Source: Mesotaenium endlicherianum (Eukaryota). Taken from it: 64,000 bases of DNA. Below are positions 27,012-62,741 of the stretch, piece after piece; the first letter of the stretch is position 1; every line of letters starts with the position of its first letter. The notes under the pieces were generated by a model. It was not told where the DNA came from and ran no database searches. It worked only from the letters and a program-made list of their open reading frames with translations. A program made the translations under genes and the position numbers. The stretch lies in the NCBI GenBank assembly GCA_009602735.1, contig WELA01000853.1, positions 15,947 through 79,946 on the forward strand. The letters are read 5' to 3'.

Positions 27012-27362
27012 GAGAAAATGCACAATCTACATTATGCCTTAGCTTGTAAAAATATTAGTTTGATAAGTGAATAGATACTCTTAATTGGTGTATCCCTATT
27101 TTGAGATTCGCCCGTAGAATATCTTTTGGCCGCACACTACAAAATGTAATGTTGTAAAGTCGTACGCCATAAAGCTCGTATAAAGTAATTGTCCTATCTA
27201 TAACCAATTCATAACCAGTTTAGTTCGCTGACACTCACGTATCACGCCAAATTGCGACGTATTATTTTGGTAACCACGTATAACACGCATGGTCTATACG
27301 CACAAATATGTAAGACATATCCGTAAATTACAAACTACAACTAGGAATGTATCGAAAGGACA

Positions 27363-32861: not shown

Positions 32862-32985
32862 CAAGTCAGGTCTTACACATGTGGAGCAAACTAGTCAACA
32901 GTTTCAAGTCAGATGCCACACATGTGAAGAGGACTAGTCAAAGGCGCCAAGTCAGGTGCTACACATGTAAGGTAGACTAGGCAAG
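32862..32985 (+). repeat. Three ~43-bp tandem units in the E1 3' UTR
   Basis: CAAGTCAG.T...ACACATGT....GACTAG.CAA repeated three times. Confidence 0.75.
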
Positions 32986-33593
32986 GTCGTAGGTGGTGTG
33001 ACCTTATTGGCTAGCCTACTCCTTAATGATAAAGAAAATTGTACAAGTTGGCCCAGAATCTGCCACGAACTCAAAAATTCATAGCGGCCACAGAACTGCT
33101 CCAAATCTGAAAATTCGAGTGCCAGACGGACCGCGTCGGAGAACTCTACCGGGTCACCAAATTTGAGAGCATTCTCATTTCTGGAGTGTCGTTGAGAGCT
33201 GAGAGAGTAGGCACTCCTCCAAATCTGTGCAGAAACTTCTGAAAATCATAAGTCCTTCTATACTTCTCCAAATTCTGCAAACTAAGTCTCAAACTGGGCG
33301 CTGTAAGATGTTCTACCAGAGTCTTGAGTTTCAGAGCATTCCAAGTTCAGGGGAGGGCACAATGTCAGAAGGCATATTCTGCCCTAACAATGCCAGCAGC
33401 CTGACCCCCTTCTACTTAGAGCATCATATCTCTCTCACCAGTGCTCCAAATTGAGCAAACTTGGACTCTAAATGACCGGCTACTCATGGACTACAGCCAG
33501 GTAAATTTTCAGAATTTATTATGCAGAGACCTATTACCAGTAGCAGTTTTAGTTTTCTGTCCAGAAACTGCGAGAAGAGAAGAGTGTCTAATG

Positions 33594-36500: not shown

Positions 36501-37202
36501 TTCCGGGGAGAACACTTCTTTGTAGTCCTCTAAGACTTCTTGTATCTCCTTGGGAACGGGGCTGCCTTCTTGACTCTCGATGTCTTTCTTGATGTCTTTT
36601 GGCGTGATCAAGGCCAAAAGAAGCTCGTGTCCCTTCCTCACAAGTCTCTTGAGTTGGAGGGCGGACAATAGTATCTCGTGTGCCGGCTTCTGGATGTCTT
36701 GGGTCTGGATATTCTGGATTGCGCGCAAAATACAGATTCTTGAAGTGATGTCATTCTTGATCTTGATAGTACCGGTCCTCCAATCAACTTGGGGGTTGTG
36801 CTTGGTCAACCAAGGCGTCCCTAGGATGACGTCGTACTTGCCCAATTGCATGGGGGAGAACACTACTCTATCCTTGAAGGACTTGATAGAGAGTGCCAAG
36901 GGGTACGTCTTCTTGGAAGGGGTAGTATAGGAGAATCCATCGGGCATCATAATCTCCTCGTCGTGGTCAAGAGTTCGCATAGTAATACCGTGCTTGGTGG
37001 CAAAATCTGCAGCAATGAAGTTGCCTTGAGCTCCGCTATCCACCAAGATGTGGACCTTCTCTCCTCCAAGGTAACCTCTCAAACTCATTGGGGCTGGAAC
37101 GTCGTCTTCAACGGGGGTCTCCACCTCACTTGGCGTGTTGCCTTCTCGTGAAGTGGGTCTTGGGGTGGTAGGCTCCTGGCCTACCGGCGCTGTCCGTTTT
37201 TT
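33594..37202 (-). CDS. pol: E1 Pol (PR-RT-RNaseH-IN-chromodomain), translated by -1 frameshift from gag
   Basis: [28 protein letters not shown] zinc finger, [26 protein letters not shown]...YLIKWKGY...NSW. Confidence 0.96.
37167..37202 (-). promoter_or_regulatory. E1 -1 ribosomal frameshift signal
   Basis: Slippery A AAA AAC (37202-37196) in the gag frame, followed 10 nt later by hairpin GGTAGGC-CAGGA-GCCTACC. The -1 frame is the pol ORF. Confidence 0.8.
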
Positions 37203-38461
37203 GACAACTTTTTGGGGCATGAAAGTGCACGATGGCCCTTTTCCTTGCAATAAAAGCATAGTCCAGCCGTCATGAGAGCTTCTTTTTCAGCCGGGGAGAG
37301 TCTTGCTTTCACTCCTTGCTGGTTTCTTGCATCATAAGTGTCATTGGAGGGTCTTCCACTCTTCCGGGCAGCCGCGGGGTCCCTTTTAATAACTCCGATT
37401 TCCATGGGTGTGGGTCCAGATTCGGATGTGGAAGGGGCTGCGTACACCCGCGTCGTCGGTACCCGTGAAGATGAAGGCACGGAGTGCTTGAAATCCAAGG
37501 TATCCACCTTTTGGGCCACTTCAATGATCTTTGAGAAGTCCGTCAAGTCGCGTAACTCCACTTCCTTTGCCACCTTGGGTTTGAGGCCAAAGATGTAGCG
37601 GTCAATCTTCTCCTCGAGAGACATGTTGGGGATCTCAAGAGTGAGGGCGTGAAATCTGGATGTATACTCTTGAACGGACGTCGTTTGCTTGAGATGGTGG
37701 AGCTTTCCTCGGGCAATCTTCTCCGCATTGATGGGCATGAATTGCTTCTTGAGGGCCTCACGAAAATCTGCCCATCTTGCATATGATGGTGGGGGCTCTT
37801 GGCCGAGCATGGGGTGCGCCATAGCTTGATATATAGCCGCTTGATAGTTACGCCACCATGATGTTGCTGCTCCTCTAAGTAAGGTAACGGCAAAGGGAAC
37901 GTAGTCCTCCTCGGGTACTTCAAGGAATGCGAGGTACGTCTCCACTTGGTAGAGCCATAAATTCAGGTTGGCACCTTTCCCGGGGTTGAAAGTGTCGGGT
38001 TTGCCGGGCTTGATGAGTTTCCTTGCTCTCGTTGGCTCTTGTGGAGGCGCTTGAGCCGGGGCTGGATTTTGAGCATTGCTCGCAATAGGGGCAACCATGG
38101 CAGCCATAGCTTCTCTTGACGCTTGCACGGTTGCTTCATAGGTGGCCAAGCCCACTTGGTTGTGGACGGTCATTAGGAAGGCTGCCCACTCATTTGCGGG
38201 AACTCCTTGTGGTGGGGTCAACTTTGCTATAGCGGCTGCCACGGGATTTGACGGTGCTCCTCCTTGTGGTGCTTCTTGTTGTTGGAGATTTCCTTGAGTA
38301 GGCTCTCCCATCGACGCTGGAGGAGGGTGTGCTCCTCCTTGTGGTGCTTCTTGTTGTTGCAGATTTTCTTGAGTGGGCTCTCCCATCGGCGCTGGAGGAG
38401 GGTGTCTTGGAGAGGAAGGGCTTCCTTCGAAAGCTTGCTGTTGGTCTTGAGGATCGGCCAT
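37181..38461 (-). CDS. gag: E1 Gag
   Basis: Retrotransposon gag core ([19 protein letters not shown]) and [14 protein letters not shown] knuckle. A 25-aa N-terminal tandem duplication lies at ~38253-38402. Confidence 0.95.
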
Positions 38462-40117
38462 CTTCTTGTGCTACCAAAGTGCCTAGCTCCGATACCACTG
38501 TAGTGAAACAGATAGATAAAGTACTTAGTAAAACAGAATACTTTATCTATTCAAGACAAGGATCTTTGAACACAAGTGGTAGCTTCTTGAAAGAGAGATG
38601 GCTTCTTGAAAGTTAATATATTTCTGGATTTTGGCAAGTACAAGAGTGATTCTGGAATGTCTTTCTATGTTCTAGCTCTTGTTTATATACTTGCTACATA
38701 AGTAATTTCTAGGAAGGTGTATGTTGATGTGTTGGCACCCAACACATCCCAAAACTTGCCACCTCTTTCTAGAATAATGTACACATGTCCTTTTGACCTA
38801 AAAATGGCACATTTGACTTTTGCCACATGGAGTTCTTCTAGGTCTTTCCTCTAACTTCGAAAATGCCTTGGAAGGTTCAAAGGACATGAACCAAGTTACT
38901 AGAGTACCTATTCACACTTGACTCCACACAAAACTACTCCAAATATATTCGAAAACATTAAAATATATGCAAACTAATATATAATAACTCAAATCACTAC
39001 ATAAGTGGTAGTAGCGAAATGCCAAGCAATGCATTTAAGTGTGATTTAAGGCCAAATAACGCCTTAGGCAAATGATACTTCGGGTTGATGGGAGATGGCT
39101 ATGGGTTTGGTTAGCCGAGGTCCTACAAACATGGTTGACCCCCAACTTACTTATAAGCAACTTAACAATTAATAAAAGATCTTCATATCATCAAGTAATA
39201 TTTATGGTGTTTTCCGATCAACTTATTAATCAGCAAACGAGGGCACAACCAACGTAAGCAATACGCACAAGTCAACGAGCATTAATGAAATGAATCGACT
39301 TACCAAATAGGCGATTAACAATTAATAAAGATCTTTATATCAGCAAGTAATCTTTATGGTATTTCCGTTAACTCGTTAAACGGCAAAGGACAATACACTA
39401 GCAGGGAATACTACTCGTCAGTCAAATGAGAGTAAACTAGCATCAATAATGCAAATCAGTAAACTCATACATAAGCAAGGTTAGAAGACAGTGCGTATCA
39501 ATGGCTTCTCGCCTTGGATTCAGATCTCTCTCAGTAAGCTGTACAAGAGAGTTGGCCTCGTTTCCGAATGCCGAACTCGAGAGCAATGCCTAGCATATGT
39601 ACATGGAATGAGTTTACTGTTCAACGGTCAGTGCGATGGCACCGCCTACCCGGGAGTTAACCACGTTGGTAGGACCTCGGTTAACCAAATCCACCGCCAT
39701 CTCCCATCATCCCGAATAGCCATCCATCATGGGGATGTCATCTGGCCATTCATCTAGCAGGTGGTACTTAGATGCATATCAAGGCAGTTCGCTGCTACCG
39801 AGCACGGAAGTCAGCTGGCTGTCAAAGAATGTGTCAGCAAGCTGACTTAAGTTGACTTCAGCCTGCTGCTTTCGGCTGAGTCATTAAACTGATAATTATG
39901 TAAAGTCCAGCAGACTGACTATTAACTAAAGTTCAGCAGGCTGAACTTAATTAACTATTATATTTAAATGAATATTATATCCACTAATATACTGATTCAT
40001 TACAATCCCTCCAACTTAACTTGTTGTCGCCTCGACAACATTAAACTGCAGAAATTTTAAATAAGGGAACTGAACCTGACCAGCCTCCCTTACTGACTGC
40101 CTCTTCAGCGTGTCACC

Positions 40118-41794
40118 TTAAGGGGTTGTTCCTGGGGCTTCAGGATCAGGAGACGGAGATCTGGACCTAGATCTGGACAGCCCTCTAGGTCTGTCAGCTG
40201 GCCTTCTAAAGAACCCTGTTTGCTCTAAAGTTGGCCCTCGAGGAGAACGGAGGATGGTGGCCTGCTCTTCAACCACTTGGGTGTTGATTCCCACATAGAC
40301 AGGCATTCCAGTAGGATGCTGAAATACATTGGCTAGAGGTACATGCCCCTGAGCGGAGGGGGAGGCTGGCATACCTCTGGCCCACCCGCGTGTCCCTCTT
40401 CTGGCACCCCTGTCCTCTGGGGATTTCTGTCTGTGTCTGCTGCCCAGTACAGTCAGATCAGCTTCTTCCCCTGCTTGGGCAGGTGGGCTGGGGGAGCGAG
40501 CGCGGGGTCCAGTTGTCGCCATAACGGGGATCACATTCCACACACCTGATCGTGGTTCTTTAGGAAGTGCCACTGCCTGTCCCTGGGTATCCTGAGTACC
40601 TGCTGCTGATGCTTCTCCTCTGCCTTGTTCTTCTTCCTCATCCTCCTCATCCTCCTCCTCGGAGAGAGTAGGGGTCTCGTCCACTAAGTCGTCCTGCTCC
40701 CTAGTAGACATGGAGTAGTCTACCGACCTCCCTTTCTTAGGGCGCGCTGGAGGTTGCTTGGCCTTCAGCCTACTGATATCTATCCGGCCTGCATTCTTTG
40801 CCCATTTGACAAAGGCATGCTTTCCCTTAGAGAAGTACTCTCTTCCCCTCCTCCTATGTTCCTTGGTCTCTGCATTCATATTGCTCAGGCATCCATTCAG
40901 CCTGGGGTCCCAAGGGGCAATGTGAGGTGGTAGGATGAGATAGCCGTCTAGGCCATAGTGGAAGTCATCCGGTTGGGCTCGGTCACACTCCTGCTTCTTA
41001 TTTGTGACGGTCATCCACCTCCAGTCTGTTGGCTGCTGGTAGTACTGGGGTCCGTGCTCAGCCTTCCTCAGTTTACACGGGAACCAGTGGGGAGAGAACA
41101 TCTGCTGTCCTGCTTCCCTGGCCAAGTACTCCCAGCTCCTTCTCTCAACTTCATTGTAAGCTGGCAGGAGTGTGAGGTAGAATACCGTATCCTTAAAGCT
41201 ATCGGGCCGCATGCTCACCATCCGGATGAGTCTCTGATCTCCCACTATTCCCGGTATGGGGACCGGCTTGTCCTCTGAATCATCTGCGAGATACCGGGCC
41301 TGCTCTGCTGTATAGCCCACCATCTTAGCATAATCTTCGTAAAGGACCACGCCGGTGTGTGTCTCGATGTACCTGTCCAGTGCTGTAGCTCCTTCCTTCT
41401 GTAGCAGTGTTGTCTGTTCCAGCCTGTTGATCTCCTGGGCTGCCAGCAATGCTTCCTTCAGGTTATCGAAGTTTTGGCCACCCACCACAGTATACCTGTA
41501 AGTGGCCAAGCTCTTCTGTCTGTCCGCTTCAATCTTTTTTCTTTTCTCCTCTTCTGCCGCTGCCGCTTCTTCTTGCTGTTTCTTCTGTCTCTCCTCCTCA
41601 GCCTTCCTGAGGTTTTCCGCTTCCTGATCCTTCTTCCTCTGTGCCTCTTCTGCCGCCTCTTGTTGTTTGCGGACCCTTTCTTGTTCTCTCCTGGTGAGGG
41701 ACGTCGCCGCCAGCTCCTTCTGGTATTGCTCCATTGTCCTCCTGGCTTCTTCTGCCTTGCGCTTTCTGTCCTCCTTTTGTGTGGTGGGCGCCAT
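40118..41794 (-). CDS. E2 ORF3: accessory protein of unknown function (~558 aa from ATG 41794)
   Basis: Intact ORF inside the element in sense orientation. N-terminal E/K/Q/R coiled coil, central aromatic-rich globular domain, acidic and SR-rich tail. Homologous to the E3 ORF3 remnants. Confidence 0.88.
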   Translation of the reverse strand: MAPTTQKEDRKRKAEEARRTMEQYQKELAATSLTRREQERVRKQQEAAEEAQRKKDQEAENLRKAEEERQKKQQEEAAAAEEEKRKKIEADRQKSLATYRYTVVGGQNFDNLKEALLAAQEINRLEQTTLLQKEGATALDRYIETHTGVVLYEDYAKMVGYTAEQARYLADDSEDKPVPIPGIVGDQRLIRMVSMRPDSFKDTVFYLTLLPAYNEVERRSWEYLAREAGQQMFSPHWFPCKLRKAEHGPQYYQQPTDWRWMTVTNKKQECDRAQPDDFHYGLDGYLILPPHIAPWDPRLNGCLSNMNAETKEHRRRGREYFSKGKHAFVKWAKNAGRIDISRLKAKQPPARPKKGRSVDYSMSTREQDDLVDETPTLSEEEDEEDEEEEQGRGEASAAGTQDTQGQAVALPKEPRSGVWNVIPVMATTGPRARSPSPPAQAGEEADLTVLGSRHRQKSPEDRGARRGTRGWARGMPASPSAQGHVPLANVFQHPTGMPVYVGINTQVVEEQATILRSPRGPTLEQTGFFRRPADRPRGLSRSRSRSPSPDPEAPGTTP

Positions 41795-42061
41795 CCTGCA
41801 CATGTAACCAGGGCACAAGTTAGTAGGATATGGACCTTTGTCATAGGGATTGCAGGAAGTATGTTAGTATTTAGTATAGTGGCTTCGCTGCTGTTTACCT
41901 TACAGGATGATTGCTAAAAGTTGACGTAGTTGCGATGCGCTACACATAAACGTATGAGTGTGTTTTTATCGCTCTCGCTCACTAACTGTCATATATTTTC
42001 CCCTCCAACTTAAATGGAGACAGGACCGCCTGTCACCTTCCCGTGTCAACTGAAATGACAG

Positions 42062-45000
42062 TTATGGAGGGACTCCAGCGGCCCGAAGGTGGAACCGTGT
42101 CAACGCCCCTTTGGCATTGGTCAAGTGGTCCTTAAACTCCCAAGTGTCCCCAGAGGCATCGTAACCCTTCCATCGAATGAGGTATTTCATGACATATTTA
42201 GACGATCGACGGACCGAGCGAGCGTCTAAAATCTCATCGACCTCATATTCCTCAGGGTCGCCGTCCCGGACAGCGGGGACCGGTCCCGGTTGGACAGGGA
42301 ACCGACCTGTGAACAGTGTATCACCTTTGATGTACGGTTCCAGGAAGGAGACATTAAAGACCGGGTGCCCCTTGTATTCAGCTGACATGTTCAGTTTGTA
42401 AGCATTCTGACCGACACGACGGACCACCGAATATGGACCGACCCAGACAGGGCCAAGCTTTTTCTTGACCACACCAGGGAGGTACAGGTGCTGAGAATGC
42501 AGTTTGACTAAATCCCCCTTGGAAAATGTCAGTTCCCGACGGTGTTGATTAGCGTATTTTTGTTGGTTTTCTTGGGCCGTGTGCAAGTTTCGTTGGACTT
42601 CTGACAGGGTGTCAGCAAACTCCTGAGTTAACTGGAGGGAGACCGGGTTGTCAATCCCTTCAGGGTGAGTTAAAGATTCCCCTAGCACATCTAGAGGAGA
42701 CTTAGGGACTCTACCCAGGCTGAGTTCAAAAGGAGTTTTGCCCGTTGACGCGTGCACCGCACTGTTGACCGCAAACTGAATTTGAGGCAACAGGTCATCC
42801 CAATTATCTTGTTTTTGGTTAATATATGCTCTCAGCACCTCCTGCAGAACTCGGTTAGTTCTTTCAGTCTGCCCATCAGTCTGAGGGTGGTTTGCTGTGC
42901 TGAGCAGCTGTTTGACTCCCATTAACCCCATTAAAGCTCTCCAGAACTTAGAGGTGAATTTTGAGTCTCTGTCTGAGATGATATTAGAAGGGAGCCCATG
43001 TTGGCATACTACATGGTTGTAAAACTGTCTCGCTGTTTCGAGTGCAGTCACTTTGACAGTTGTGGGGATAAAAATGACCATTTTTGTCAGTTTATCCACG
43101 ACTACCAGTATTGAATCATGCCCGTTGGCAGTTCTTGGTAGTGAGACCACCCAGTCCATGGATATAGTTTCCCAGCGTCCCGCTGGGATGGGTAGCGGTT
43201 GCAAGAGACCTCCGGGTGGTGTGTGCCGAGACTTATTTCTCTGACACTGGTCACAGGACTTGACATATTTCAAGACCTCCCGGGGTAACCCCTCCCAATG
43301 ATAATGTTTTGCCAGTTTGCCAACAGTTTTGGCCTGCCCCAAATGTCCACCCAGGAGACTGTCATGAGCTTGACTCAGTAAGAGAGACCTTATTTCCAAG
43401 TTATTAGGAATGACCAGCTTCAGCCTGCCTGAAGTGGTTTCAGTCACCCAGACCCCTCCCTTGAGCTTATACCCGAGTGCAGTAGCACGACACACACCAG
43501 TAGTGGGGCTGGGCTCAAATGTTGGGTCAGAAAGGTAGGCTTTCCTAAGTTGTTCAAGGAAGGACTTTTTCACCTTTAGTGAAGTGAGTGCACACAGGAC
43601 TTTATCTACAGCATGCTGACTAAAGTTCCTTTCTTGCAAGTCAGGTCTTCTAGAGAGTGCATCAGCAGGATTCAACTTCCCTGGTTTGTAGTCGATCTGG
43701 ACTTGGAACTGCTCCAGCATCTGGCTCCAGCGGTTCTCCCTCCTCGACAGCTTGGACTTCTTCTGAAAGTGGGTCAGAGCTAGATGATCTGTAATCACCT
43801 TAAAAGCTTTACCATGTAAGTATGCTCTCCACTGTTTGAGTACATGAATGATAGCTAGCAGCTCTTTATCATGCACTGAGTAATTAATCTCCGCTGGATT
43901 AAATTTCATAGACTCATACAACACAGGATGCCACTCCTGCCGTACCTTACCATCCTTTGTGGTTTTGTCAGCAGGCTGCAACAAAATAGCACCCATGGCA
44001 AAATCAGAGGCATCAGTAACCACCTGCACCGGTTTGCTGGGGTCATACACGGCTAGCACTGGGGCAGAACAAAGGGCATCTTTAAGGGTCTGGAAGGCAG
44101 CCTGCTGCTCTTCCCCCCACACATACCCGATGTCTTTCTTAGTAAGGTCAGTCAGTTTACTGGCCTTTGTGGAATAATTCTCAATAAATCTCCTATAGTA
44201 GTTAGCCAACCCGAGGAAGGATCTAACTTCAGAGACAGACTGTGGTACTGGCCAGTCCCTTATGGTCTGGACTTTCTTAGGATCCACACTGATGCCCTCT
44301 TTACTGACAACGTGGCCTAAGAATTCAATACTTTCCTTAAAGAAATCACACTTGCTCATTTTAGCATACAAGTGATTTTTCCGCAGAGTGTCCAGCACTT
44401 TCTTTAAGTGTTCAGTGTGCTGAGCTTCATCTTTAGAGAAAATTAAAATATCATCCAGGAAAACTTGCACAAACTTATCCAAATAAGGTCTGAAAATGTC
44501 ATTCATAGCACCCATAAAGGTAGCAGGAGCATTAGTCAGTCCAAATGGCATCACGTTGAACTCATAGTGTCCATAACGTGTGCGGAAAGCAGTCTTGTGT
44601 TCATCCCCCTCAGCAATTCTGATTTGATGATAACCACTCTTGAGATCTATCTTACTGAACACCTTAGCGCCAGACAGGGTATCAAGCAAGTCCTCGATTC
44701 TGGGTAAAGCATACTTGTTCTTTACTGTAATTCTGTTCAGGGCTCTGTAATCCACACACATCCGCATACTGCCATCCTTTTTCTTAACAAATAGGATAGG
44801 TGCGCCGTACGGTGATTTACTGGGAGAAATGTAACCATTTTCCTCCAGCTCTGCAATCTGTGTTTTCAACTCCTCGCTCTCCAAATAAGACAAGCCATAA
44901 GTGCGTTGCCAGGGTGGCTGGCTACCAGGTAATAGATCAATCCTATGATCTACTTCCCTTTTAGGGGGTAGTCCTGGAGGCATGTTAAACACATCAGTGT

Positions 45001-45871
45001 ACTGAGCAACAATTTTTGCAGCAGTAGGGTGCTCCGGAGGGCTTACCTTTTTCTCAACCACTTCTTCAGGTTGAGGAGGTACCTCTCTTAGCAGCAGACA
45101 GAACATTCTGTCTTCCTTCTGGTTCCAGCTTTTGACGAACTCCATTGCATTCAGCAACTTGCATCCTTCTGGAAGCCTCTTCTTTTCCTTCATTTGCCAT
45201 CCACACAGGACAAGAGGAAGAGCACTGGTGGGTGCCAAGTCAGTCTGCCCATCACTGGCTCCTCTCACTTTAACTGTACCTCTGCTCCAACACACTTCAG
45301 CTTGATGTCTATTAAGCCAGGACCTGCCTAGCACGAGATCATAAAAGCCAGTGTTGAGTACCTCAAATGTAAGCGTTTCAGTTAGAACTGCAATGCCAGA
45401 ACCTAACTGGACCTCAATAGGCTTGGTTATAACTCCTCCCGGGATACTTGAGGCATCTCCAAGGAATATTTTTCTATTCCCTTGGGTGACAGTAGGCAGC
45501 CTTAGCCGCTTAACTAAGTCCTTGTGGATAAAAGTATGTGACGCCCCTCCGTCAACAAATGCCCTCACCTTCCTACCTGCAATCATGCAATGCAGTAGGA
45601 TAGGGGGGACTGTCTTTTCCTGACTTTCGCATTGTTCTCCTGACGTAGCAAAGAAATGTTGGACATCAGGTGGAACAAGAGCATCCAGAGTGTGCACTCT
45701 CTGGACGTCTATATTACTGATGGTCTCCTTTATCTGTTTGTCAGGCATGCATAGTGAATCCAGTTCAGCAGGACCCATAATACCTGCTACGAGGGCAGCT
45801 AGTGACGACTCACTATCTCTAGCATCCTCACAGTCAGTAGACTGGATTACTGACTGTTGCTGTCTTTTAAA
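42062..45871 (-). CDS. pol: E2 Pol (PR-RT-RH-IN-chromodomain), via -1 frameshift
   Basis: [54 protein letters not shown]...YLIRWKGY...DTW. The frame is open up to the slippery site. Confidence 0.96.
45830..45871 (-). promoter_or_regulatory. E2 -1 frameshift signal
   Basis: T TTA AAA (45871-45865), a 7-nt spacer, then a perfect 10-bp stem ACAGTCAGTA/TACTGACTGT (45857-45830). The -1 frame reads [10 protein letters not shown]...GIMGPAEL into pol. Confidence 0.85.
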
Positions 45872-47325
45872 GGCTGGTCTTTTCTCTCGACCTTAGGCAG
45901 GTGCTTGACCGGACACTGTTCTCTGTAGTGGCCTTTCTGCTGACAATGGTAGCAAGTAGATTTTGCTGAGGCTGGTCTCGGCTTAGTCCTACCACCACCC
46001 CTTCCATAGCCACCTCGAGAGGGACCACCTCTACCTCTAGACTGAATAGCATTGTACTCATACTCATATTCATCACCCTGATTATCCTCAGCCTGGTCTC
46101 CTTCAACTGCATTGTAGGAACCGTGGGGCTTTTTGACAATCTTAGACACCAAAGCGTTACTCTGGCGCTTGTGATTGAACTGCTGCTGATCCCAGGCGTC
46201 AGCATCCTGGATCAAGTCAGCCAGTTTCTCATACTTTTTCTCAGCAAAATGACCAGAGACCTCGGATTTCAAGCCATACCTGAAGTATGCTATCCTATAC
46301 CGTTCTGGCAAATCAGGCTGCTTCATCATGTTCTCTTGGAACTTTTGAGCAAACTCAGCAACTGAAGTGGTCTGCTTCAGTGTCAGGGAGATCATCGCAT
46401 AGATAGCTTTCTCCTGCTGGTTGATGACATCAAACTTCTCATGCAACTTCTCGACAAACTCTACCCACGTAGGGTCACCGAGTTGCCGAGCCTTACGCTC
46501 TTCCTTCCAGTAAAGCCACCAGTCTGCGGCACTGCCTTTCAGTAGCGCACCGGTGTGCCTGACCTTCTCGTAATCTTGCAGTTCTGGGTAGTTCTCCAGC
46601 CACTGCTCAACATCCGCGAGAAACTTGATCAGGTAATATTTTCTGTTTCCCTCAGGATCATAGTCCTGGGGAGGTTTCGGCTTGGGCTTACTAGGCCCTC
46701 GGCCACCACCACTAGTGGTGTGAGACCCCAGTTGGTCTCTGTCCCGGAGTAGGGACATTATGATTCTTTTGTCCTCCTGCTGGGACTGATACATGGTCGC
46801 CATTTGCGACTGCATCTGAACGAACAATGCTCCCAAGTCTACATTTTGGGGTGGTAGATTAGCAAATGCAGCAGCAGCATTGGCATCTACTCGCTGAGTA
46901 GTGTCCTCAACAATCCCTCTTGCTCCTGCAGCAGCAATTCCTGCCGCATTCAGCCGGTCACGTATTTGACCTAGGGGTACATTGAGTTGTACGGCAGGAG
47001 GTGGGTTCAGAACATTGGCCCTTGATGCCATAAGTTCTTCAACAGTGCGCTCGTCAGCTGGCTGTCCTTCCCTCCTTTGTATATCTTCAGCGGCCTTTGC
47101 TACTTGTTCAGCTTCTAGTCTGGCTATCTCCTCCTCAGCTTGCTGAGCTGCGACTGAGGCAATAGCAGCTGCCTCATCTGCAGCCTCCCTAGCTGCAGTA
47201 TCCGCTACTGCTTCCGAATAGGTACGGTTTCCCGCTACATGGCTTTCCGCCTGGTTTTCGACATTCTCGTTATCCTGGTTCTCCATGTCTCGGGAGTTGC
47301 TAGTTTGAGACCTTGTCCTTACCAT
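45847..47325 (-). CDS. gag: E2 Gag
   Basis: MVRTRSQ start, [23 protein letters not shown]-rich stretch and [14 protein letters not shown] knuckle. Confidence 0.95.
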
Positions 47326-48104
47326 ACAAAGAAGACTGTGATAACTGCTCCGATACCACTGAAATGAATCGACTTACCAAATAGGCGATTAACAATTAAT
47401 AAAGATCTTTATATCAGCAAGTAATCTTTATGGTATTTCCGTTAACTAGTTAAACGGCAAAGGACAATACACTAGCAGGGAATAATACTCGTAAGTCAAA
47501 TGCGAGTAAACTAGCATCAATAATGCAAATCAGTAAACTCATACATAAGCAAGGTTAGAAGACAGTGCGTATCAATGGCTTCTCGCCTTGGATTCAGATC
47601 TCTCTCAGTAAGCTGTACAAGAGAGTTGGCCTCGTTTCCGAATGCCGAACTCGAGAGCAATGCCTAGCATATGTACATGGAATGAGTTTACTGTTCAACG
47701 GTCAGTGCGATGGCACCGCCTACCCGGGAGTTAACCACGTTGGTAGGACCTCGGTTAACCAAATCCACCGCCATCTCCCATCATCCCGAATAGCCATCCA
47801 TCATGGGGATGTCATCTGGCCATTCCTCTAGCAGGTGGTACTTAGATGCATATCAAGGCAGTTCGCTGCTACCGAGCACGGAAGTCAGCTGGCTGTCAAA
47901 GAATGTGTCAGCAAGCTGACTTAAGTTGACTTCAGCCTGCTGCTTTTGGCCGAGTCATTAAACTGATAATTATGTAAAGTCCAGCAGACTGATTATTAAC
48001 TAAAGTTCAGCAGGCTGACTACTAACTAAAGTTCAGCAGGCTGAACTAAATTAACTATTATATTTAAATGAATATTATATCTACTAATATACTGATTCAT
48101 TACA

Positions 48105-49008
48105 ATTAATCATACAATCAATAAACTCATACATAAACAAGGTTAGTAAGTAGTTCGTGCAACGGCTTGCAGACTTATATTCAAATATTGTCTCAATAGT
48201 ATGTACAAAGAGTTGGCCTTCTTTTCGAATACCAAATTCCGTATTAATACCTAGCATATGTACATGGAAAGAGTTATACTGTTCATCGGGTAGTGCGATG
48301 GCACTGCCTACCTGGGAGTTAACTACGTCGGCAAGACCATGGCTAACCAAGTCCACAGCCATCTCCCATTATTCCAAATTGCCATCCGCCTAAGGCGTCA
48401 TTAGGCCATTCATCTAGCATATTACACTTAGATGCATCATTAGACGGTTCGCTAGTATCGCTTGAAAGTTGAGGTGATCAGCTGAGTGTCAAAGAATGCG
48501 TCAGCAAGCAGATCTAAGTTGACTTCAGCTAACTGTCTTTAGCAGAGTCATCACACTAAATAAAAGTTTAAGTCCAGCAGACTGAGTATTAACCGAAGTT
48601 TAGCAAATTGGACTTAATTAAGTACTGCATTTAATTGAATCATTATATCTAACAATTTACAAATAAATTACAGGAAGTAATGCTCACAAGTCAAATGCTA
48701 GTAGGGAGCATCATTCATGCAATCACTATACTCATTCATACAAGAGGCTAATAAACTATTCTTGTAACGGCTTGCAGCCTTGGATTTTGATATTCCCTCA
48801 GCAGTTTGTACAGAGAGTTGGCCTTGTTTTTAAACGCCAAACACAATAGCAATCTTAGCATATGTACATGGAAAGAGTTCTACTGTTCAACGGCAATTAC
48901 GATGGCACCGTTTGGAGTTAATAAGGTTGGTAAGACCTTGGCTAATCAAATTTACAGCCATCTCCCATCATCTCAAATCGCCATCCGCCTAAGGCATCAT
49001 CTGGCCTA
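48105..49008 (-). repeat. Decayed E2-family LTR remnants (one continues from ~39145-39285 across the E2 insertion; a second partial copy follows at ~48673-49008)
   Basis: Collinear similarity to the E2 LTR (AGCATATGTACATGGAA, GCCATCTCCCAT, TGTCAAAGAATG). Confidence 0.8.
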
Positions 49009-52908: not shown

Positions 52909-53710
52909 TGAAATGAATCGACTTACTAAAAAGCGATTAATAATTAATGAAGATCTTTATATCAGCAAGTAATCTTCATGGTATTTTCTGTAGATTGATT
53001 AAACAGCAAAAGACAACACACTAGCAATGGACAATACTCGTAAGTCAAATGGAAGTAAACTAGCATCAATAATGCAATCGGTAAACTCACACATAAGGAA
53101 GGCTAGGAGACAGTGCATATCAATGGCTTCTCGCCTTGGATTCAGATCTCTCTCAGTAAGCTGTACAAAAGAGTTGGCCTCGTTTCCGAATGCCGAACTC
53201 GAGGGCAATACCTAACATATGTACATGGAATGAGTTTACTGTTCAACGGCCAGTGCGATGGCACCGCCTACCCGGGAGTTAACCACGTTGGTAGGACCTC
53301 GGTTAACCAAATCCACCGCCATCTCCCATCATCCCGAATCGCCATCCATCCTAAGGATGTCATCTGGCCATTCATCTAGCACACCACACTTAGATGCATA
53401 TTTAGGCAGTCGCTGCTACCGAGTACGAAAGTCAGCTGGCTGTCAAAGAATGTGTCAGCAAGCTGACCTAAGTTGACTTCAGCCTGCTGCCCCCGGCTGA
53501 GTCGTTTAACTGATTGTTTTATAAAATCCAGCATACTCAATATTAACTAAAGTTTAGCAGGCTGAACTTATTTAACCATCATATTTAAATGAATATTATA
53601 TCAACCAATGTACTAATTCATTACGATCCCTCCAACTTAACACGTTGTCGCCTCGACTACACTAACACTAATAACAGCGTGCTGTCCCTTCCGTCCCCAG
53701 CCTATTGCTA

Positions 53711-55877
53711 TTAGGAGGGAGATGTCCCTGGGGCCCTATACTCAGGGGAGCCAGACTTCCTCCTGTCTTAGAATCTCCTGAAGCCTGGGGGATCCGCGTA
53801 GGGGCCCAGCGGAGAACGCAGTAACTGGACTGTTTCCTCCTGCACAGTCTGAAACTGAAGGGAGGTAGCCTTCTCCTGGGCAGCCCTCAAATTGACAGGT
53901 ACATATACCGGCAACCCAGAAGGATGTTGCATGACATGAGCCAAGGGCACATGCCCTCTCTGCAAGGGAGATGCTGGCAGGCCTCTGGCTATCTCACGAG
54001 CAGCTGTAGTGATTTAAGTTATTTTATATATTAATTTGCATATATTTTAATATTTTCAAATATATTTGGAGTACTATTGTGTGGATTCAAGTGTGAATAG
54101 GTACTCTAGTGACTTGGTTCATGTCCTTTGAACCTTCTAAGGCATTTTCGAAGTTAGAGGAAAGACCTAGAAGAACTCCACGTGGCAAAAGTCAAATTCG
54201 TCATTTTTAGGTCAAAATGACATGTGTACATTATTCTAGAAAGAGGTGGCAAGTTCTGGGATGTGTTGGGTGCCAACACATCAACATACACCTTCCTACA
54301 AATTACTTATGTAGCAAGTATATAAACAAGAGCTAGAACATAGAAAGACATTCGAGAATCACTCTTGTACTTGCCACAATCCAGAAATATATTAACTTTC
54401 AAGAAGCCATCTCTCTTTCAAGAAGCTACCACTTGTGTTCAAAGATCCTTGTCTTGAATAGATAAAGTATTCTATTTTACTAAGTACTTTATCTATCTGT
54501 TTCATTGCAGTAGCCCTCCTGTCTGCCCTGTCTGACTAGGTCTCCGTGCCTGCAGATGGGCTCTGTCCTCTGGCAGTTCCCAACCAAGTGATGTCCTCCT
54601 CTTCAGCGAGCTGTTGCAAGGCCATCTCAGTCTTCTCCCTTACAGGGGATGGGGCAGGTGTCAGGACCACAGCGGGGCTAGTGTCCTCCTCCTCGCCTTC
54701 CTCTTCTTCCTCTGACCGCTCCTCCTCTCCTTCCCCTGGTTCCTCTGAGACCGCTGGGGTTTCCTCTGTCAGCTGCTCTAGCTCTTCCCGAGAAAAAGAG
54801 TACCCCACTGACCTTCCCCTTTTGGGTGCTGGTGGAGGCTGTTAAGTCCGGACCGCATATAGGTCCTTTTCTCCCTGCTTGCTTGCCCATTTGGCATAAG
54901 CATGCTTCCCTTTAGAGAATGACTCACGGGGCCCTGCTCCTGTCCTCCTGCATTTCTTGGCTCATGCAGTCTCTTACTCCATCCCATCTTGGGTCCCAAG
55001 CTGCAATGTGAGGAGGCAACAGTATGTTTCCCTGTAGGTTTGTTAGGCAATCCTCATCCTTTGCCTTGTCATTCTGCTGGTCCCTCGTGTCGATGGTCAT
55101 CCACCGCCAATCGATGGGCTTCTGGAAAAAGGCAGAGTCTGTCCTTTTCAGGGTGCACGGGTACCAGTGCCCTGCGAAGTCCAGCTGACTGGTTTCCCTG
55201 GCCAAGAACTCCCAGCTTCTCCTCTCCACCTCATTATACATGGCCATGAACCGGTTATAGGGTGTAGAGTCCTTGAAGCTGTCCGCGTCCATGGGGATCA
55301 TCCTGATGACCCTATCCTTTCCCCAGATACTTGGGATCGATACAGCTCCTGTCTCATTCATTTGGGCCATTGCCTTGGCCTCTCTGACTGTATACCCTAC
55401 CATCCTGGCATAATCGTGGTAATGGAGTAGCTCTGTGCTGACCTCAATATACATGTCAAAGTAACCTGATGTCTCCCCTTCCCTTTGCACGATGTCCTGC
55501 TGTGCCACACTGCGACTTCTTTGGACATACTTGAAGGCCTCCTCCAGTAGATCAAAGCCCTTGCCCAGTATTGTGTAGCGGTAGCTGCTAATTCTCCTCT
55601 GTTCTTCTTCTTCAGCCTGCTGCTTCCGCCTCTCCTCGGCTTGCCTCTCCTCTTCCGCCTTCTTGGCCTCCTCTGCAGCTTTTCAGTCCAGTTCTTCTTG
55701 CCTGAGCCTGGCTTGCTCCTCCTCCTCCTTCTTCTTCTATGCCTCCCGCTGTTGTTGGAGTCGTTGTGATTCTCGAACGGAGATGGAGGAAGATTCGATG
55801 TCGCCACGGAATTGCAAGTAACCTGCATGTGCCTCTTCCGCTCTTCCCTTCCTCTTAAGTTTCGACTTCTGGGTCAT
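53711..55877 (-). pseudogene. E3 ORF3 (frameshifted, interrupted by a solo LTR)
   Basis: Fragments YNEVERRSWEFLARE, DWRWMT, LPPHIAAWDPR, PKRGRSVGYS and GHVPLAHVMQHPSGLPVYV match E2 ORF3. Confidence 0.88.
54005..54509 (+). mobile_element. Solo LTR of the E1 family
   Basis: Reverse complement of the E1 LTR, TG..CA ends, TSD GCAGC/GTAGC. Confidence 0.93.
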
Positions 55878-56235
55878 CCTGCTCAATCGTAAACTTAATG
55901 CAGTCAGTGGAGTCATGATACTTTGCCGCTACTAAGTGTCCGTAGTTAAGAAGAACGTGATAGGGAGAGTCCTTAATGTGTAGTACCTTGTGTAAGTGAG
56001 TATAAGAGAGAATTGAGTTAGAGAGAAAAAGTGAGTATGAGCGCAGGTTGAGTGTGTAGAGTGGTTATAAAAATTTCCCTGGCTGATCCCGAAACGGAAC
56101 ACACTCCCTCCAACTTAATTGTAAGGTGGGCTGTTTGTCAAGACTGTCACTATCTATCACTAATCGTCACATTGCCCTCCGACTTATATGGAGACAGGAC
56201 CTCCTGTCACCTGTCCATGGCCACTGAAATGACAG

Positions 56236-59200
56236 TAAGGGAGGGGCGCCAGCCGCCCGAAGGTAGAACCGTTTTAACGCCCCTTTGGCATTGGTCAGCT
56301 GGTCTTCAAATTCCCAAGTGTCTCCAGAGGCGTTGTAACCCTTCCATCTGACCAGGTACTTCATGACATGTTTAGATGAGCGACGGACAGAGCGAGCGTC
56401 TAAAATCTCCTCGACCTCATATTCCTCAGGGTCACCATCCCGGACAGCGGGGACCGGTCCGGGTTGGACAGGTAACCGACCTGTGAACAGTGCGTCACCT
56501 TTGATGTATGGTTCCAGGAAGGAGACATTAAAGACCGGGTGGCCCTTATATTTTGCTGACATGTTCAGTTTGTAAGCATTTTGATTGACACGGCGCACCA
56601 CCGAATATGGACCGACCCAGACAGGACCATGCTTTTTCTTGACCACACCAGGTAGGTACAGGTGCTGAGAATGCAGTTTGACCAAATCGCCCTTAGTAAA
56701 TATCAGTTCACGACGGTGCTGATTAGCGTATTTTTGTTGGTTTTCCTGGGCTTTCTGCAGGTTCTGTTGGACTTCTGACAGGGTGTCAGCAAACTCCTGT
56801 GTTAACTGGAGGGAGACCGGATTGTCAATCCCTTCAAGGTGAGTTAAAGACTCCCCCAATACATCTAAAGGAGACTTAGGGACTCTACCCAAACCGAGTT
56901 CAAAAGGAGTCTTGCTCGTTGACGCGTGCACCGCACTGTTGACCGCAAACTGGATTTGAGGTAACAAATCATCCCAATCATCTTGTTTTTGGTTAATATA
57001 GGCTCTCAGTACCTCTTGCAGAACTCGGTTAGTTCTTTCAGTCTGCCCATCAGTCTAAGGGTGGTTTGCTGTGCTGAGCAGCTGCCTGACTCCCATTAAC
57101 CCCATTAAAGCTCTCCAGAACTTAGAGGTAAACTTTGAGTCTTTGTCTGAGATGATATTAGAGGGTAGTCCATGTTGGCATACTACATGGTTGTAGAACT
57201 GTCTCGCTGTTTTGAGTGCAGTTACTTTGACAGTTGTGGGGATATAAATGACCATTGTTGTCAGTTTATCCACGACTATCAGTATGGAATCATGCCCAGT
57301 GGCAGTTCTTGGTAGTGTTACCACCCAGTCCATGGATATTTTCCCAGTGGCCAACTGGGATGGGCAGCGGTTGTAAGAGGCCCCCCGGTGGTGTGCTTAG
57401 ACTTATTCCTTTGGCACTGGTCACAGGACTTAACATATTTCAAGACCTCCCGAGGTAATCCCTCCCAATGATAATGTTTTGCCACTTTGCCAACGGTCTT
57501 GGCCTGCCCCAAATGCCCACCCAATAAACTGTCATGGGTTTGACTCAGTAAAAGAGACCTTATTTCCAAGTTATTAGGAATGACTAGCTTCAGCCTGCCT
57601 AAAGTGGTTTCAGTCACCCAGACCCCACCCTTAAGTCTATACCCGAGTGCAGTAGCAGGACACACACCGTCAGTGGGGCTGGGCTCAAATGTTGTATTAG
57701 AAAGGTAGGGTTTCCTAAGTTGTTCAAGGAAGGACTTTTTCACCTTTAGTGAAGTCAGTGCACAAAGGTCTTTCTCTACAGCATGCTGACTAAAGTTCCT
57801 TTCTTGCAAGTCAGGTCTTCAAAAGAGTGCATAAGCAGGGTTCAACTTCCCTGGTTTATAGCCAATCTGGACTTGAAACTGCTCCAGCATCTGGCTCCAG
57901 CGGTTCTCCCTCCTCGACAGCTTGGACTTCTTCTGAAAGTGAGTAAGAGCTGAATGATCTGTAATCACCTTCAACGCTTTACCATATAAGTATGCTCTCC
58001 ACTGTTAGAGCACATGAATGATTGCTAGCAGCTCTTTATCATGCACTGAGTGATTAATCTCAGCTGGATTAAATTTCATATACTCATACAACACAGGATG
58101 CCACTCCTGCTTTACCTTACCATCCTTTATGGTTTTGTCAACAGGCTGCAACAAAATAGCACACATGGCAAAGTCATAGGCATCAGTAACCACCTGCACA
58201 GTTTTGCTGGGGTCATACACGGCTAGCACTGGGGCAGAACAAAGAGCATCTTTAAGGGTCTGGAAGGCACCCCGCTGCTCTTCCCCCCACACATACCCTA
58301 TGTCTTTCTTGGTAAGGGCAGTCAGTTTACTGGCCGTTGTTGAATAATTCTCAATAAAATCTCATATAGTAGTATGCCAACCCAAGGAAGGATCTAACTT
58401 CGGAGACGGATTGTGGTATAGGCCAGTCCCTTATGGTCTGGACCTCCTTAGGATCCACACTGATGCCCTCTTTGCTGACAACATGGCCATGGATTTCAAT
58501 ACTTTCTTTGAAGAAATCACACTTGCTCATTTTAGCATACAACTGGTTCCTTCTCAGAGTGTCCATGACTGTCTTTAAGTGTTCAGCATGCTGAGCTTCA
58601 TCCTTAGAGAAAATTAAAATATCATCCAAGAAGACTTGCACAAATTTGTCCAGGTAAGGTCTGAAAATGTCATTCATAGCACCCATGAAGGTTGCAGGAG
58701 CATTGGTCAGTCCGAATGGCATCACGTTGACCTCATAGTGTCCATAACGTGTGCGAAAGGCAGTCTTGTGTTCATCCCCCTCAGCAATTCTGATTTGATG
58801 ATAATCACTCTTGAGATCTATCTTACTGAACACTATAGCACCAGACAGGGTATCAAGCAAGTCCACGATTTTGGGTAAAGCATACTTGTTCTTTACTGTT
58901 ATTCTGTTAAAGGCTCTGTAATCAACACACATCCGCGTACTCCCATCCTTTTTCTTAACAAAGAGAATGGGTGCGCCATAAGGTGATTTACTGAAAGAAA
59001 TGTAACCATTTTCCTCAAGCTCTGCAATCTGTGTTTTCAAGTCTTTGCTCTCCACATAAGACAAGCCATAAGTGGGTTGCCAGGGTGGCTGACTCCCAGG
59101 TAATAAGTCAATCTTGTGATCCACTTCCCTCTTAGGAGGTAGTCCTGGAGGCATATTGAAAACATCAGCGTACTGAGCAACAATTTTTGCAGCAGTAGGG

Positions 59201-60036
59201 TGCTCCGGAGGGCTTACCTTGTTCTCAACCACTTCTTCAGGTTGAGGAGGTACCTCTCTTAGCAGCAGACAGAACATTCTGTCTTCCCTTTGGTTCCAGC
59301 TGTCGATGAACTCCATTGCATTCAGCAATTTGCATCCTCCTAGAAGCCTCTTCTTTTCCTTCATTTGCCATCCACACAGGACAAGAGGAAGAGCACTGGT
59401 GGGTGCCAAGTCAGTCTGCCCATCACTGGCTCCTCTCACTTTAACTGTACCTCTGCTCCAACACACTTCAGCTTGATGTCTATTAAGCCAGGACCTGCCT
59501 AGCACAAGATCATAGAAGCCAGTGTTGAGTACCTCAAATGTAAGCGTTTCAGTTAGAACTGTAATGCCAGAACCTAACTGGACCTCAATAGGCTTGGTTA
59601 TAATTCCTCCCGAGATACTTGAGGCATCTCCAAGGAATACTTTTCTATTTCCTTGGGTGACAGTAGGCAGCCTTAGCCGCTTAACTAAGTCCTTATGGAT
59701 GAAAGTATGTGACGCCCCTCTGTCAACAAATGCCCTCACCTTCCTACCTGCAATCATGCAATGCAGTAGGATAGGGGGGACTGTCTTTTCCTGACTTTCG
59801 CATTGTTCTCCTGACGTAGCAAAGAAATGTTGGACATCAGGTGGAACAAGATCATCCAAAGTGTGCACTCTTTAGAGATCTATATTGCTGATAGGTCTCC
59901 TTTATCTGGTTGTCAGGCATGAATAGTAAATCCAGTTCAGCAGGACCCATCATACCTGCTACGAGGGCAGCTAGTGACGACTCACTATCTCTAGCATCCT
60001 CACAGTCAGTAGACTAGATTACTGACTGTTGCTGTC
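56236..60036 (-). pseudogene. pol: E3 pol pseudogene
   Basis: ORF fragments 58351-59868, 58005-58292, 57318-57809, 57055-57354 and 56167-56967 are collinear with and highly similar to E2 Pol. Confidence 0.93.
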
Positions 60037-60042
60037 TTTTAA

Positions 60043-60740
60043 CACTAGGTATCCCATTGGACCATATATGGTCTAGCTAACCCCCATTTTTCAGCGCTGA
60101 CCTCCAGGGTGCTACAGTTGACCAACTGGTACAAATTTTGGCTCAAACGAACCGTACAGATTTGAACCTTAGGCGAAAAAATGCAAAATGGTCTTCCGAT
60201 TATTAACGACAAAGTTAGAGTGAAAAGAAGGAGGTTCAAAGTTCAGGTTCACAACAAAATTTCAAGTGAAAAGTCTGTCATACCCGAGGTCACTAAAGAG
60301 CTCTTAGAGCCATGACTTCTTCAAATGCGCCAAAAATAGTTGTGGGTGGTAAATTACTCATCCTTGCCACCTTCTGGGGAGATGCATGGGCGAAAAAGAC
60401 ATTTGGACAATATTACATAGAGTTTTTCTTAGTCGAAATTGTGAGAAAGGAGATTGTGAGGACTAAAAAGGAAAACTCATGGCTCATAGAAGTGTTGTAT
60501 GACAAAGAAAAGAAGCAATGGGAGGCATGGCAGGTCAGGCAGTACCTATCTACAGTGCCCGAAGAGTCTTGGTTTTATTTCGAGCCGCATGTAGTTCGTT
60601 TTGGCTTGGTTTCCTCAAGGGCCTCTTTGCTTTCAAATTCGAGAGAGAATGAGGGTCACAGTCTAATTTCGTCCTCCCAAGATCCAAATGATGACTCACA
60701 GCCAAGGTCTAGTGATGGTGAGGAGGATAAGGAGGATGAG

Positions 60741-60772
<32 letters not shown>

Positions 60773-61780
60773 GGATATTATGAGGAAGAGGGGCAGGCCT
60801 GACACCGGAAGAGGTAAGCAGCTGATGCTCATTGTTCCTACTGTTAAAAATGAGAAAAAGAAGAGGAGGAGAAGGGCAACTGCTCCATAACCATAATTTC
60901 TCCTTAACCATAACTTCTCCAAACATTGTGGTGCACTACAAAACACACAAAGACGCTGTTGATCAATTTTACAAGCTCTGTGTGAGGGATAAGTTCTTTG
61001 TCGAGACTTCTGCTGTGAGCTTAAAGTGGTGGCACAAACTATATTGGGGTCTATTTGATGCTGCCCTGGCCGATGCCTACATCCTCTACAACCTGGCCCA
61101 TCCTGAGAGTGACAGGTATCCCTTCATGTTAGATGTTGTAGCGGAGATGACAGACTTCCCTGATCCACATGAGGGGAGGCGCTTTCGCTGGAGTGCGGGG
61201 CGGGCTGGGATTGACAGGTTCCTAGGGAGACACTTCCCTAAGCACCTTCCAGGAGGCTCTAGACCAGGATGTCTAGTGTGCAAGAGCAAGTTGTATGACC
61301 TAGGCCATGAGAAGAGTAAGGTGAGGCCTAGCTATTGGTGCGCAACGTGTGGAGTAGCGCTTTGCCCCGCGCCTTGCTTTGAGGAGTACCATACCAACAG
61401 GCACATAGCACATGTAGATAGTGGCCCCTACAAGCTGAGTAGCAGTAAGAAGTAGGATTGTAGAGCAGAAGAACTGCAACTGAAACATATATGAAAGACT
61501 TTGTGCTCCATAAACAATTCAGCTTCATGTGTGCAAAGCTGTCGATTCTGCAATATTTTGCAACTAATAATTCATTTTTAATCATTTTAATTCATTATTT
61601 TGTATATAAATATTTATTTGTAAGTAAAGTAAGACCTTACTTTCAAGCTCCACTTTACAGATTACTATTTGCATGTGCAAAGAATAAATTATGAATTATC
61701 AACTGTGATGCTTTGGTGCATGAGGCACTAAAAAGTACGAAAAATACCCGGACCCCATATGGTCCACTAAGTACAGAGTG
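60043..61780 (+). mobile_element. Internally deleted piggyBac-superfamily DNA transposon
   Basis: Begins right after TTAA (60039-60042) with CACTAGGTATCCCATTGGACCATATATGGTC. Imperfect inverted end GACCCCATATGGTCCACTAAGTACAGAGTG at 61751-61780. The right TTAA is missing. Confidence 0.82.
60312..61455 (+). pseudogene. piggyBac transposase remnant: N-terminal acidic region (60312-60890) and C-terminal part with Cys-rich domain (~60915-61455); most of the DDD core is deleted
   Basis: PNIVVHY....AVDQ...KWWHKLYWGLFDAALADAYILY and HFP...CLVC...YWCATCGVALCPAPCFEEYH, typical of the PGBD C-terminus. Confidence 0.85.
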
Positions 61781-61867
61781 TGCCTCCACAAAGCTACTGA
61801 TTAGAATGAAGTGAAATTTGTTTCATATGATAGGTAAGACACATGCCTACCCCAAATTAAATCAACA

Positions 61868-61989
61868 ACTACTGCTTCCAAATAGGTACGGGTTCCCGCT
61901 ACATGGCTTTCAGCCTGATTTTTGACATTTTCGTTATCGTGGTTCTCCATGTCTCGGGAGTTGCTAGTTTGAGACATTGTCCTTACCAT
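61868..61989 (-). pseudogene. gag: 5' stub of E3 gag (rest deleted)
   Basis: [40 protein letters not shown] matches the E2 Gag N-terminus. Confidence 0.88.
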
Positions 61990-62741
61990 ACAAAGAAGAC
62001 TGTGATAACTGCTCCGATACCACTGAAATGTTTCGACTTACTAAAAAGGCAATTAATAATTAATGAGGATCTTTATATCGGCAAGGAATCTTTATGGTAT
62101 TTTCTGTTGATTGATTAAACGGCAAAAGACAACACACTAGCAGTGGAGAATACTCCGAAGTCAAATGGAAGTAAACTAGCATCAATAATGCAATCAGTAA
62201 ACTCACACATATGCAAGGCTAGGAGACAGTGCATATCAATGGCTTCTCGCCTTGGATTCAGATCTCTCTCAGTAAGCTGTACAAGATAGTTGGCCTTGTT
62301 TCCGAATGCCCAACTCGAGAGCAATACCTAGCATATGTACATGGAATGAGTTTACTGTTCAACGGCCAGTGCGATGGCACCGCCTACCTGGGAGTTAACC
62401 ACGTTGGTAGGACCTCGGTTAACCAAATCCACCGCCATGTTCTATCATCCCGAATCGCCATCCATCCTAAGGATGTCATCTGGCCATTCATCTAGCACAC
62501 CACACTTAGATGCATATTTAGGCAGTCGCTGCTACCGAGTACGAAAGTCAGCTGGCTGTCAAAGAATGTGTCAGCAAGCTGACCTAAGTTGACTTCAGCC
62601 TGCTGCCCCCGGCTGAGTCGTTTAACTGATTGTTTTATAAAATCCAGCAGACTCAATATTAACTATAGTTCAGCAGGCTGAACTTATTTAAGTATTATAT
62701 TTAAATGAATATTATATCAACCAATATACTGATTCATTACA

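Follow-up and report, generated by a model that had tools for sequence, protein, structure and literature searches.

Background

Open reading frames that follow pol in sense orientation in LTR retrotransposons are usually called env-like and often encode membrane spans; the one in Bagy2 is expressed by splicing, and the expression and role of extra ORFs in plant and algal LTR elements are an open question (PMC7264820). Among chromoviruses, the accessible text of the REXdb survey records sense 3' extra ORFs in Tekay only (18%) and gives none for Chlamyvir (44 elements), Tcn1 (1500), Reina, Galadriel, or CRM (PMC6317226). Nuclear-type extra ORFs are reported for sunflower Tekay elements too, in the available part of a further study (PMC11728184). 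Introns in plant LTR elements are exceptions, Ogre, EVADE, and BARE1 being those treated in the accessible portion of PMC12786077, and CERV of the C. elegans element Cer1 has been shown to export genomic RNA, according to the available part of PMC10309623.

An intact chromovirus with a third gene

The window, a 64,000-nt stretch of DNA from Mesotaenium endlicherianum, carries on its minus strand three chromodomain-bearing Ty3/gypsy elements (E1, E2, and E3). The features of the intact copy, E2, are as follows.

39286..48104, minus strand: E2, full-length chromovirus (Ty3/gypsy) with gag, pol, and ORF3
47360..48104, minus strand: E2 5' LTR, 745 nt, with GTAAGT at 47377 as a candidate donor of which no use was seen
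47347..47358, minus strand: E2 primer-binding site, TGGTATCGGAGC
45847..47325, minus strand: E2 gag, 492 aa, with Ty3_capsid, Retrotrans_gag, and a zinc knuckle (Pfam)
42062..45778, minus strand: E2 pol, 1238 aa counted from the first ATG
42001..42011, minus strand: second, internal polypurine-tract copy (AAGTTGGAGGG), lying 5' to the ORF3 cassette
40118..41794, minus strand: E2 ORF3, 558 aa, in sense orientation after pol
40007..40017, minus strand: E2 polypurine tract preceding the 3' LTR
39286..40004, minus strand: E2 3' LTR, 719 nt

The gag, pol, and ORF3 frames are all intact, the two LTRs are 98.6% identical, and the target duplication is TTAAT. E2 fits the definition of a chromovirus (Ty3/gypsy): the LTRs are of the TG..CA type, primer-binding site, polypurine tract, and 5-bp target duplication are all present, and the Pfam positions in pol give the order protease, reverse transcriptase, RNase H, and integrase, followed by an SH3 domain and, at the integrase C-terminus, a chromodomain (PF00385, residues 1178-1230, 34.5 bits against a cut-off of 25.1). 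We take the primer-binding site to be of the tRNA-Met type. No Rfam family matched in E2.

At the end of gag (45871-45829, minus strand), the sequence T TTA AAA, 7 nt, and then a perfect 10-bp hairpin follow one another, with the pol frame open across them, which is likely a -1 ribosomal frameshift signal. A splice acceptor ahead of the pol ATG was considered and rejected, as its TACTGAC is one arm of this hairpin; since that arm lies after T TTA AAA, a -1 frameshift fits better. The end of pol (42075-41995 in E2 and 56250-56170 in E3, minus strand) folds similarly in the two elements, with CCCTCC paired to the internal polypurine-tract copy around two enclosed hairpins; the predicted energies of -28 and -27 kcal/mol come without a shuffle control, and the fold is a candidate packaging or export element. 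Additionally, TCATTTCAGT, from the junction of LTR end and primer site (47367), recurs on the minus strand at the pol stop of both E2 (42058) and E3 (56232).

The two neighboring elements, and the third gene of one of them, are located at the following positions.

52909..62741, minus strand: E3, decayed sister of E2, with target duplication CTTAT and LTRs 95.1% identical
53717..55877, minus strand: E3 ORF3, broken
32322-39001, minus strand: E1, second young chromovirus family

In E3, frames are broken and most of gag is replaced by other sequence (60043-61868), unrelated to gag, in which one ORF has a weak DDE_Tnp_1-like zinc finger match below the cut-off. Its ORF3 contains stops at 55739 and 55685 and shifts frame near 54930; it is also interrupted, at 54005-54511, by a solo LTR of the E1 family in opposite orientation. 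E1 has LTRs 99% identical and a pol 43% identical to that of E2, and the roughly 770 nt 3' of its pol hold no third ORF of at least 150 aa. Older relics of the E2/E3 LTR, 67-75% identical, lie around the elements at 48105-49006, 31580-32311, and 30270-30436, and E1 and E2 appear to be nested within them. The window also contains a repeat in the form of a 1.28-kb inverted duplicate (25955-27222 versus 50008-51281, 94% identical). Pfam also detects protein kinase exons of a host gene, presumably of the receptor-like-kinase type, at 7100-15400 on the minus strand; CA/GT and CCCTAA-like repeats abound in its introns. Taken with the best named integrase matches (given below), the sequence points to a eukaryotic host that is likely a streptophyte green alga.

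The ORF3 protein and its cassette

The N-terminus of ORF3 is charged and helical; a conserved core (about residues 97-345) follows, and the tail is acidic and rich in RS and SP. Basic clusters (RKRK, KRKK, and PKKGR) are present, and the tail of the E2 protein contains RSRSRS. The E2 and E3 proteins are 41% identical, and ORF3 is under purifying selection: over 225 codons of the core, protein identity is 45%, dN is 0.46, dS is about 2.3 (near saturation), and dN/dS is about 0.2. The preliminary description of this locus had offered an env-like product as one reading. That comparison fails, since ORF3 has no membrane span (the top 19-residue Kyte-Doolittle mean is 0.73) and no homologue was found, matches to Pfam all being below the cut-off.

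The search for homologues covered a 5.8-billion protein set (with the whole protein and with residues 85-350, at near lengths), 1.84 billion representatives, viral and metagenome contigs, and PDB sequences, and none was retrieved from any of them; among 120 homologues of pol, none carried an ORF3 homologue at E <0.5. In the ESM Atlas, the best value was 0.82, within the range reached by shuffled proteins. As the collections searched hold few algal proteins, this absence says little. AlphaFold2 predictions for ORF3 reached pLDDT values of 34.8 and 34.1. From the basic and RS motifs one might guess at a nuclear protein that regulates silencing or the RNA of the element itself, a role that we consider possible and put forward tentatively.

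The history of ORF3 appears to differ from that of the rest of the element. The pol genes of E2 and E3 are 92% identical at the DNA level, with a dS of 0.23-0.31. DNA similarity ends about 20 nt past the internal polypurine-tract copy (42011 in E2; 56185 and 56116 in E3) and returns about 30 nt ahead of the genuine tract bordering the 3' LTR, such that the ORF3 cassette is bounded by two copies of the tract. Loose ends in public runs compared with E2 and E3 point to further spacer variants at the same border. Given the roughly tenfold gap in synonymous divergence and the sharpness of the border, the cassette was likely exchanged between subfamilies.

A splice layout shared by two unrelated spacers

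The preliminary description had placed complete sets of splice motifs immediately before the ORF3 start codon in both copies, and every one of these motifs was found in our check of the sequence (a slash parts exon from intron below). The two short introns that they would define are as follows.

41796..41898, minus strand: E2 candidate short 5'-UTR intron, 103 nt; splicing from the donor at 41898 was not seen
55879..55986, minus strand: E3 candidate short intron, 108 nt; the short form was not seen

On the minus strand of E2, the donor AAG/GTAAAC at 41898 is followed by TACTAAC at 41869-41863 and again at 41825-41819, and then by the acceptor TGCAG/G-ATG, with its AG at 41797-41796 and the ATG at 41794, which confirms the 103-nt spacing. 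E3 has AAG/GTACTA at 55986, CACTGAC at 55909-55903, and GAGCAG/G-ATG with the ATG at 55877, which likewise confirms 108 nt. Branch A and AG are 24 nt apart in E2 and 25 nt apart in E3. A TATAA motif is present upstream in E3, at 56069, and the E2 spacer has none. The GTAAGT that had been proposed as an LTR donor is indeed common to all four LTRs (47377, 39303, 62041, and 52926), 17-18 nt inside the 3' end.

Apart from this layout, the two spacers are as unrelated as had been claimed: their alignment scores 18, against a shuffle mean of 17.5, and 230 of 500 shuffles reach the same score. TACTAAC occurs three times on the minus strand of the window, twice within the 103-nt candidate intron of E2 (composition-based P about 2e-5). 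When both strands of 30200-64000 were scanned by criteria chosen after the motifs had been seen, 41 of 1287 ATGs were preceded by YAG-N, six of these also had a CTRAY branch, and three had an AG/GTR donor as well; the two ORF3 starts are among these three, and the third, at 61101, lies in the sequence that replaces most of the E3 gag. The splice layout at the ORF3 starts is thus more than chance, and its retention while synonymous sites became saturated also counts against chance.

Reads from E2 and E3

Public runs X1, X4, X9, and X12 were compared with E2. Cover of E2 by X1 and X4 is even and the intron stands unspliced in single contigs, one base being missing at 41870, inside the intron, in X1; with this flat depth, both runs look like DNA and so provide no test of splicing. 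Two joints had been put forward for E2, from the short-intron donor (41899^41795) and from the LTR donor (47378^41795), and neither was seen in the four runs. Across 41365-41906, which includes the acceptor, depth in the RNA runs X9 and X12 was zero; for the LTR joint, both sites lay in the stretch compared. The comparison did detect an 8-kb joint of another kind. No RNA run was listed as carrying E2. At 18 of 22 variant places in pol (22 picked from the 40 rows shown), the reads carry the letter of E3, and a second comparison was therefore made on E3. Elsewhere in these runs, 18 X12 reads link E2 ORF3 sequence (40372) to E1 pol sequence (34306), and a chimeric copy of the two is transcribed. 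Within 47327-48110, the mate direction of X9, which looks stranded, flips near 47600 in the LTR, which may mark a start or a poly(A) site.

When runs X5, X9, X12, and X15 were compared with E3, at 85% likeness, a single contig of X5 was found to link 55877 with 56415 across a gap of 537 nt whose ends are CT..AC, i.e., GT-AG on the minus strand. This contig has a depth of 4.4, at which errors may occur, stems from a run that may be RNA or DNA, and represents a related copy rather than E3 itself. The intron removed, and the counterpart of its donor in E2, are given below.

55879..56415, minus strand: intron removed in the X5 contig, 537 nt, with donor GAG/GT at the start of the chromodomain and acceptor GAGCAG/G-ATG
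42240..42241, minus strand: E2 counterpart of the X5 donor, GAG/GTCGAT, which would give a 446-nt intron

The short side of the joint is 50 letters long and three letters fit both sides, as would be expected where GAG/GT is joined to CAG/GA. From this length, we infer that a loose end at 55828, which reads as a third, in-frame variant of ORF3, belongs to the same contig. A random joint would reach the predicted ORF3 acceptor with a chance of about 0.2%. The donor lies in pol in phase 0, directly after codon 1179, which encodes residue two of the chromodomain matched by Pfam (1178-1230). GAG/GTCGA is present in both E2 and E3 and is weak as it stands; it is plausible nonetheless, because the donors of the host kinase gene are loose too (GTGCCC, GTGCCT, GTTCGT, and GTGCGT; one acceptor there is GAGCAG). 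If X5 is DNA, the joint would have come from a spliced RNA copied back into the genome and would still be a splice. The single GT-AG joint in a related copy, together with the conserved layout, supports CAG/G-ATG as a real acceptor serving ORF3. The earlier proposal is thus partly supported, in its acceptor; the one joint seen uses a third donor, inside pol, in place of either of those proposed.

Neither of the proposed donors was seen in use on E3. No joint for the 108-nt intron appeared in X5, X9, X12, or X15, at low depth, and no joint from the LTR GTAAGT to the E3 acceptor was found among the loose ends listed (all but six), the form in which alone such a donor would be visible there. The raw RNA runs showed no joint at a threshold of three reads. 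Unspliced molecules do cross the E3 acceptor, in contigs at a depth of 26-31 and in up to nine (X12) and six (X15) RNA reads. Many of them come from a rearranged copy broken at 55815 (one contig and seven X12 reads), and in X15 the acceptor-spanning reads are opposite in mate direction to those covering 3' ORF3; these molecules are thus a weak test of splicing. The frameshift in the ORF3 of E3 is not shared by the related copies in X5 and X12. Library chemistry is not on record; if it was the customary one, the pol-end reads of X9 and X15 are antisense, and read strand is given no weight in the promoter proposal below. No pile-up of read starts was seen in the E3 stretch, where contigs cannot show starts.

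Expression of ORF3

We consider it probable (about 0.6) that ORF3 is a selected third chromovirus gene, with an acceptor one base before its ATG, and that it is likely expressed by a spliced subgenomic RNA probably starting inside the element. Under this proposal, ORF3 would be translated from RNA made from an internal promoter, with transcription beginning either in 3' pol or in the spacer, and the acceptor would take alternative donors, namely the chromodomain donor (seen once) and the short-intron donor (predicted). Splicing would take out the upstream ATGs that lie ahead of ORF3 in the spacer. Because a subgenomic RNA of this kind would have no primer-binding site, it would not be copied to DNA, and so the intron could not be erased. 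Full-length RNA would remain mostly unspliced, since the donors are weak and a spliced genome would lose its chromodomain; where it was spliced at the chromodomain donor, it would found chromodomain-less copies. Against the proposal, an in-frame ATG lies within each of the two putative short introns (41803 in E2 and 55916 in E3), from which ORF3 could be made without splicing.

A second reading, possible though we hold it only tentatively, is that a spacer promoter and the short 103/108-nt 5'-UTR intron dominate, the chromodomain donor being a minor, cryptic site on read-through RNA. AAG/GTA donors are similarly spaced in two spacers that cannot be aligned, E2 has two copies of TACTAAC, and TATAA stands 83 nt above the E3 donor; moreover, none of the 12 variant places of related copies at 55847-55994 falls in donor, branch, or acceptor (among 40 of 292 rows). 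The lack of such a joint in four runs on E3 and four on E2 speaks against it, at low depth and with many spanning reads derived from the copy broken at 55815. The short intron would be compatible with our preferred explanation as a second donor.

The splice might instead act on full-length RNA initiated in the LTR, yielding integrase with or without its chromodomain, in the latter case with a short tail in its place. Gag and pol would stay intact as far as the chromodomain, and at the junction the ORF3 start would be one base off the upstream frame. The position and phase of the donor seen, right at the start of the chromodomain, and its presence in both elements suit this idea. However, the contig shows the upstream exon for at least 50 nt only, the predicted tails differ in length (7 residues in E3 and 65 in E2) and in sequence, and no chromodomain-less copy was demonstrated; the donor may also be cryptic, as its sequence is fixed by the coding of YEV as well. 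We regard this reading as unlikely. A bolder variant, to which we would give similarly small odds and which draws on analogy, is that one splice switches ORF3 on and the integrase chromodomain off, while ORF3, with its RS and basic motifs, would govern this splice or, like an algal Rev, the export of RNA left unspliced. If true, the element would toggle between chromatin-targeted and untargeted insertion.

Retroviral env is made by splicing from a donor on the LTR side. An equivalent here would join the LTR GTAAGT to the ORF3 acceptor and remove primer-binding site, gag, and pol. The motif is the sole GTRAGT in the E2 LTR and occupies the identical place in four LTRs, and barley Bagy2 uses this route (PMC7264820). 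Nevertheless, conservation of six letters among LTRs that are 90% identical is weak evidence, no such joint was found on E2 (at zero RNA depth over the acceptor), no LTR-like loose end lies at 55878 among those listed, and ORF3 lacks the membrane span of an env, which makes this route improbable. Very unlikely, finally, is the view that the motifs arose by chance or remain from a host gene that was captured, with ORF3 translated from unspliced RNA at the upstream ATG and the X5 joint being noise: the in-frame ATGs and the preponderance of unspliced molecules across the acceptor agree with it, but the chance rates, a layout that has outlived synonymous saturation, and a joint on the predicted base with GT-AG ends do not.

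Comparison with known systems

E2 resembles Chlamyvir and Tcn1, as covered by the accessible text of REXdb (PMC6317226), in its Ty3/gypsy order, C-terminal chromodomain, 5-bp duplication, and a gag separate from pol, and differs from them in its extra sense ORF3; in a similarity list, the best named matches to the integrase come from Closterium and Haematococcus, with identities of about 35-51%. Position and orientation of ORF3 are those of the env-like ORFs, with splicing as in Bagy2, whereas ORF3 has neither a membrane span nor a sequence match to them; their transcription is ascribed to the 5' LTR promoter, in contrast to the donor seen here at the 3' end of pol (PMC7264820).

With Ogre, EVADE, and BARE1, E2 shares a sense intron retained in an element that replicates through RNA. 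The splices of those elements separate or shorten gag or the polyprotein, and in none of the cases described in the accessible portion of the source is a chromodomain spliced out or a 3' ORF served (PMC12786077). In a mainly open-access literature, searched by title and the start of the abstract, we found neither a splice that removes a chromovirus chromodomain nor the E2/E3 family.

By analogy, the nearest functional model for ORF3 is CERV of Cer1, likewise an orphan ORF in the env position, of about 520-560 aa, with a KRKK-type motif and on a spliced Ty3/gypsy RNA; in the available part of its description, CERV is spliced onto gag exons, while ORF3 has an ATG of its own (PMC10309623). For the internal promoter, the closest analogy is offered by the foamy-virus genes Tas and Bet, accessory genes before the 3' LTR that depend on an internal promoter and splicing, as we infer here. 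The foamy virus is a retrovirus whose internal promoter has been mapped and whose Tas is a proven transactivator, according to the accessible text of PMC13220597, whereas for ORF3 an internal promoter and a regulatory role are proposals. If the chromodomain-skipping splice were to act on full-length RNA, it would offer a retroelement a means of altering its target preference through splicing. Set beside these systems, E2 and E3 provide an orphan ORF of a non-seed-plant chromovirus with exact splice coordinates, evidence of selection, and an apparent exchange of its cassette.
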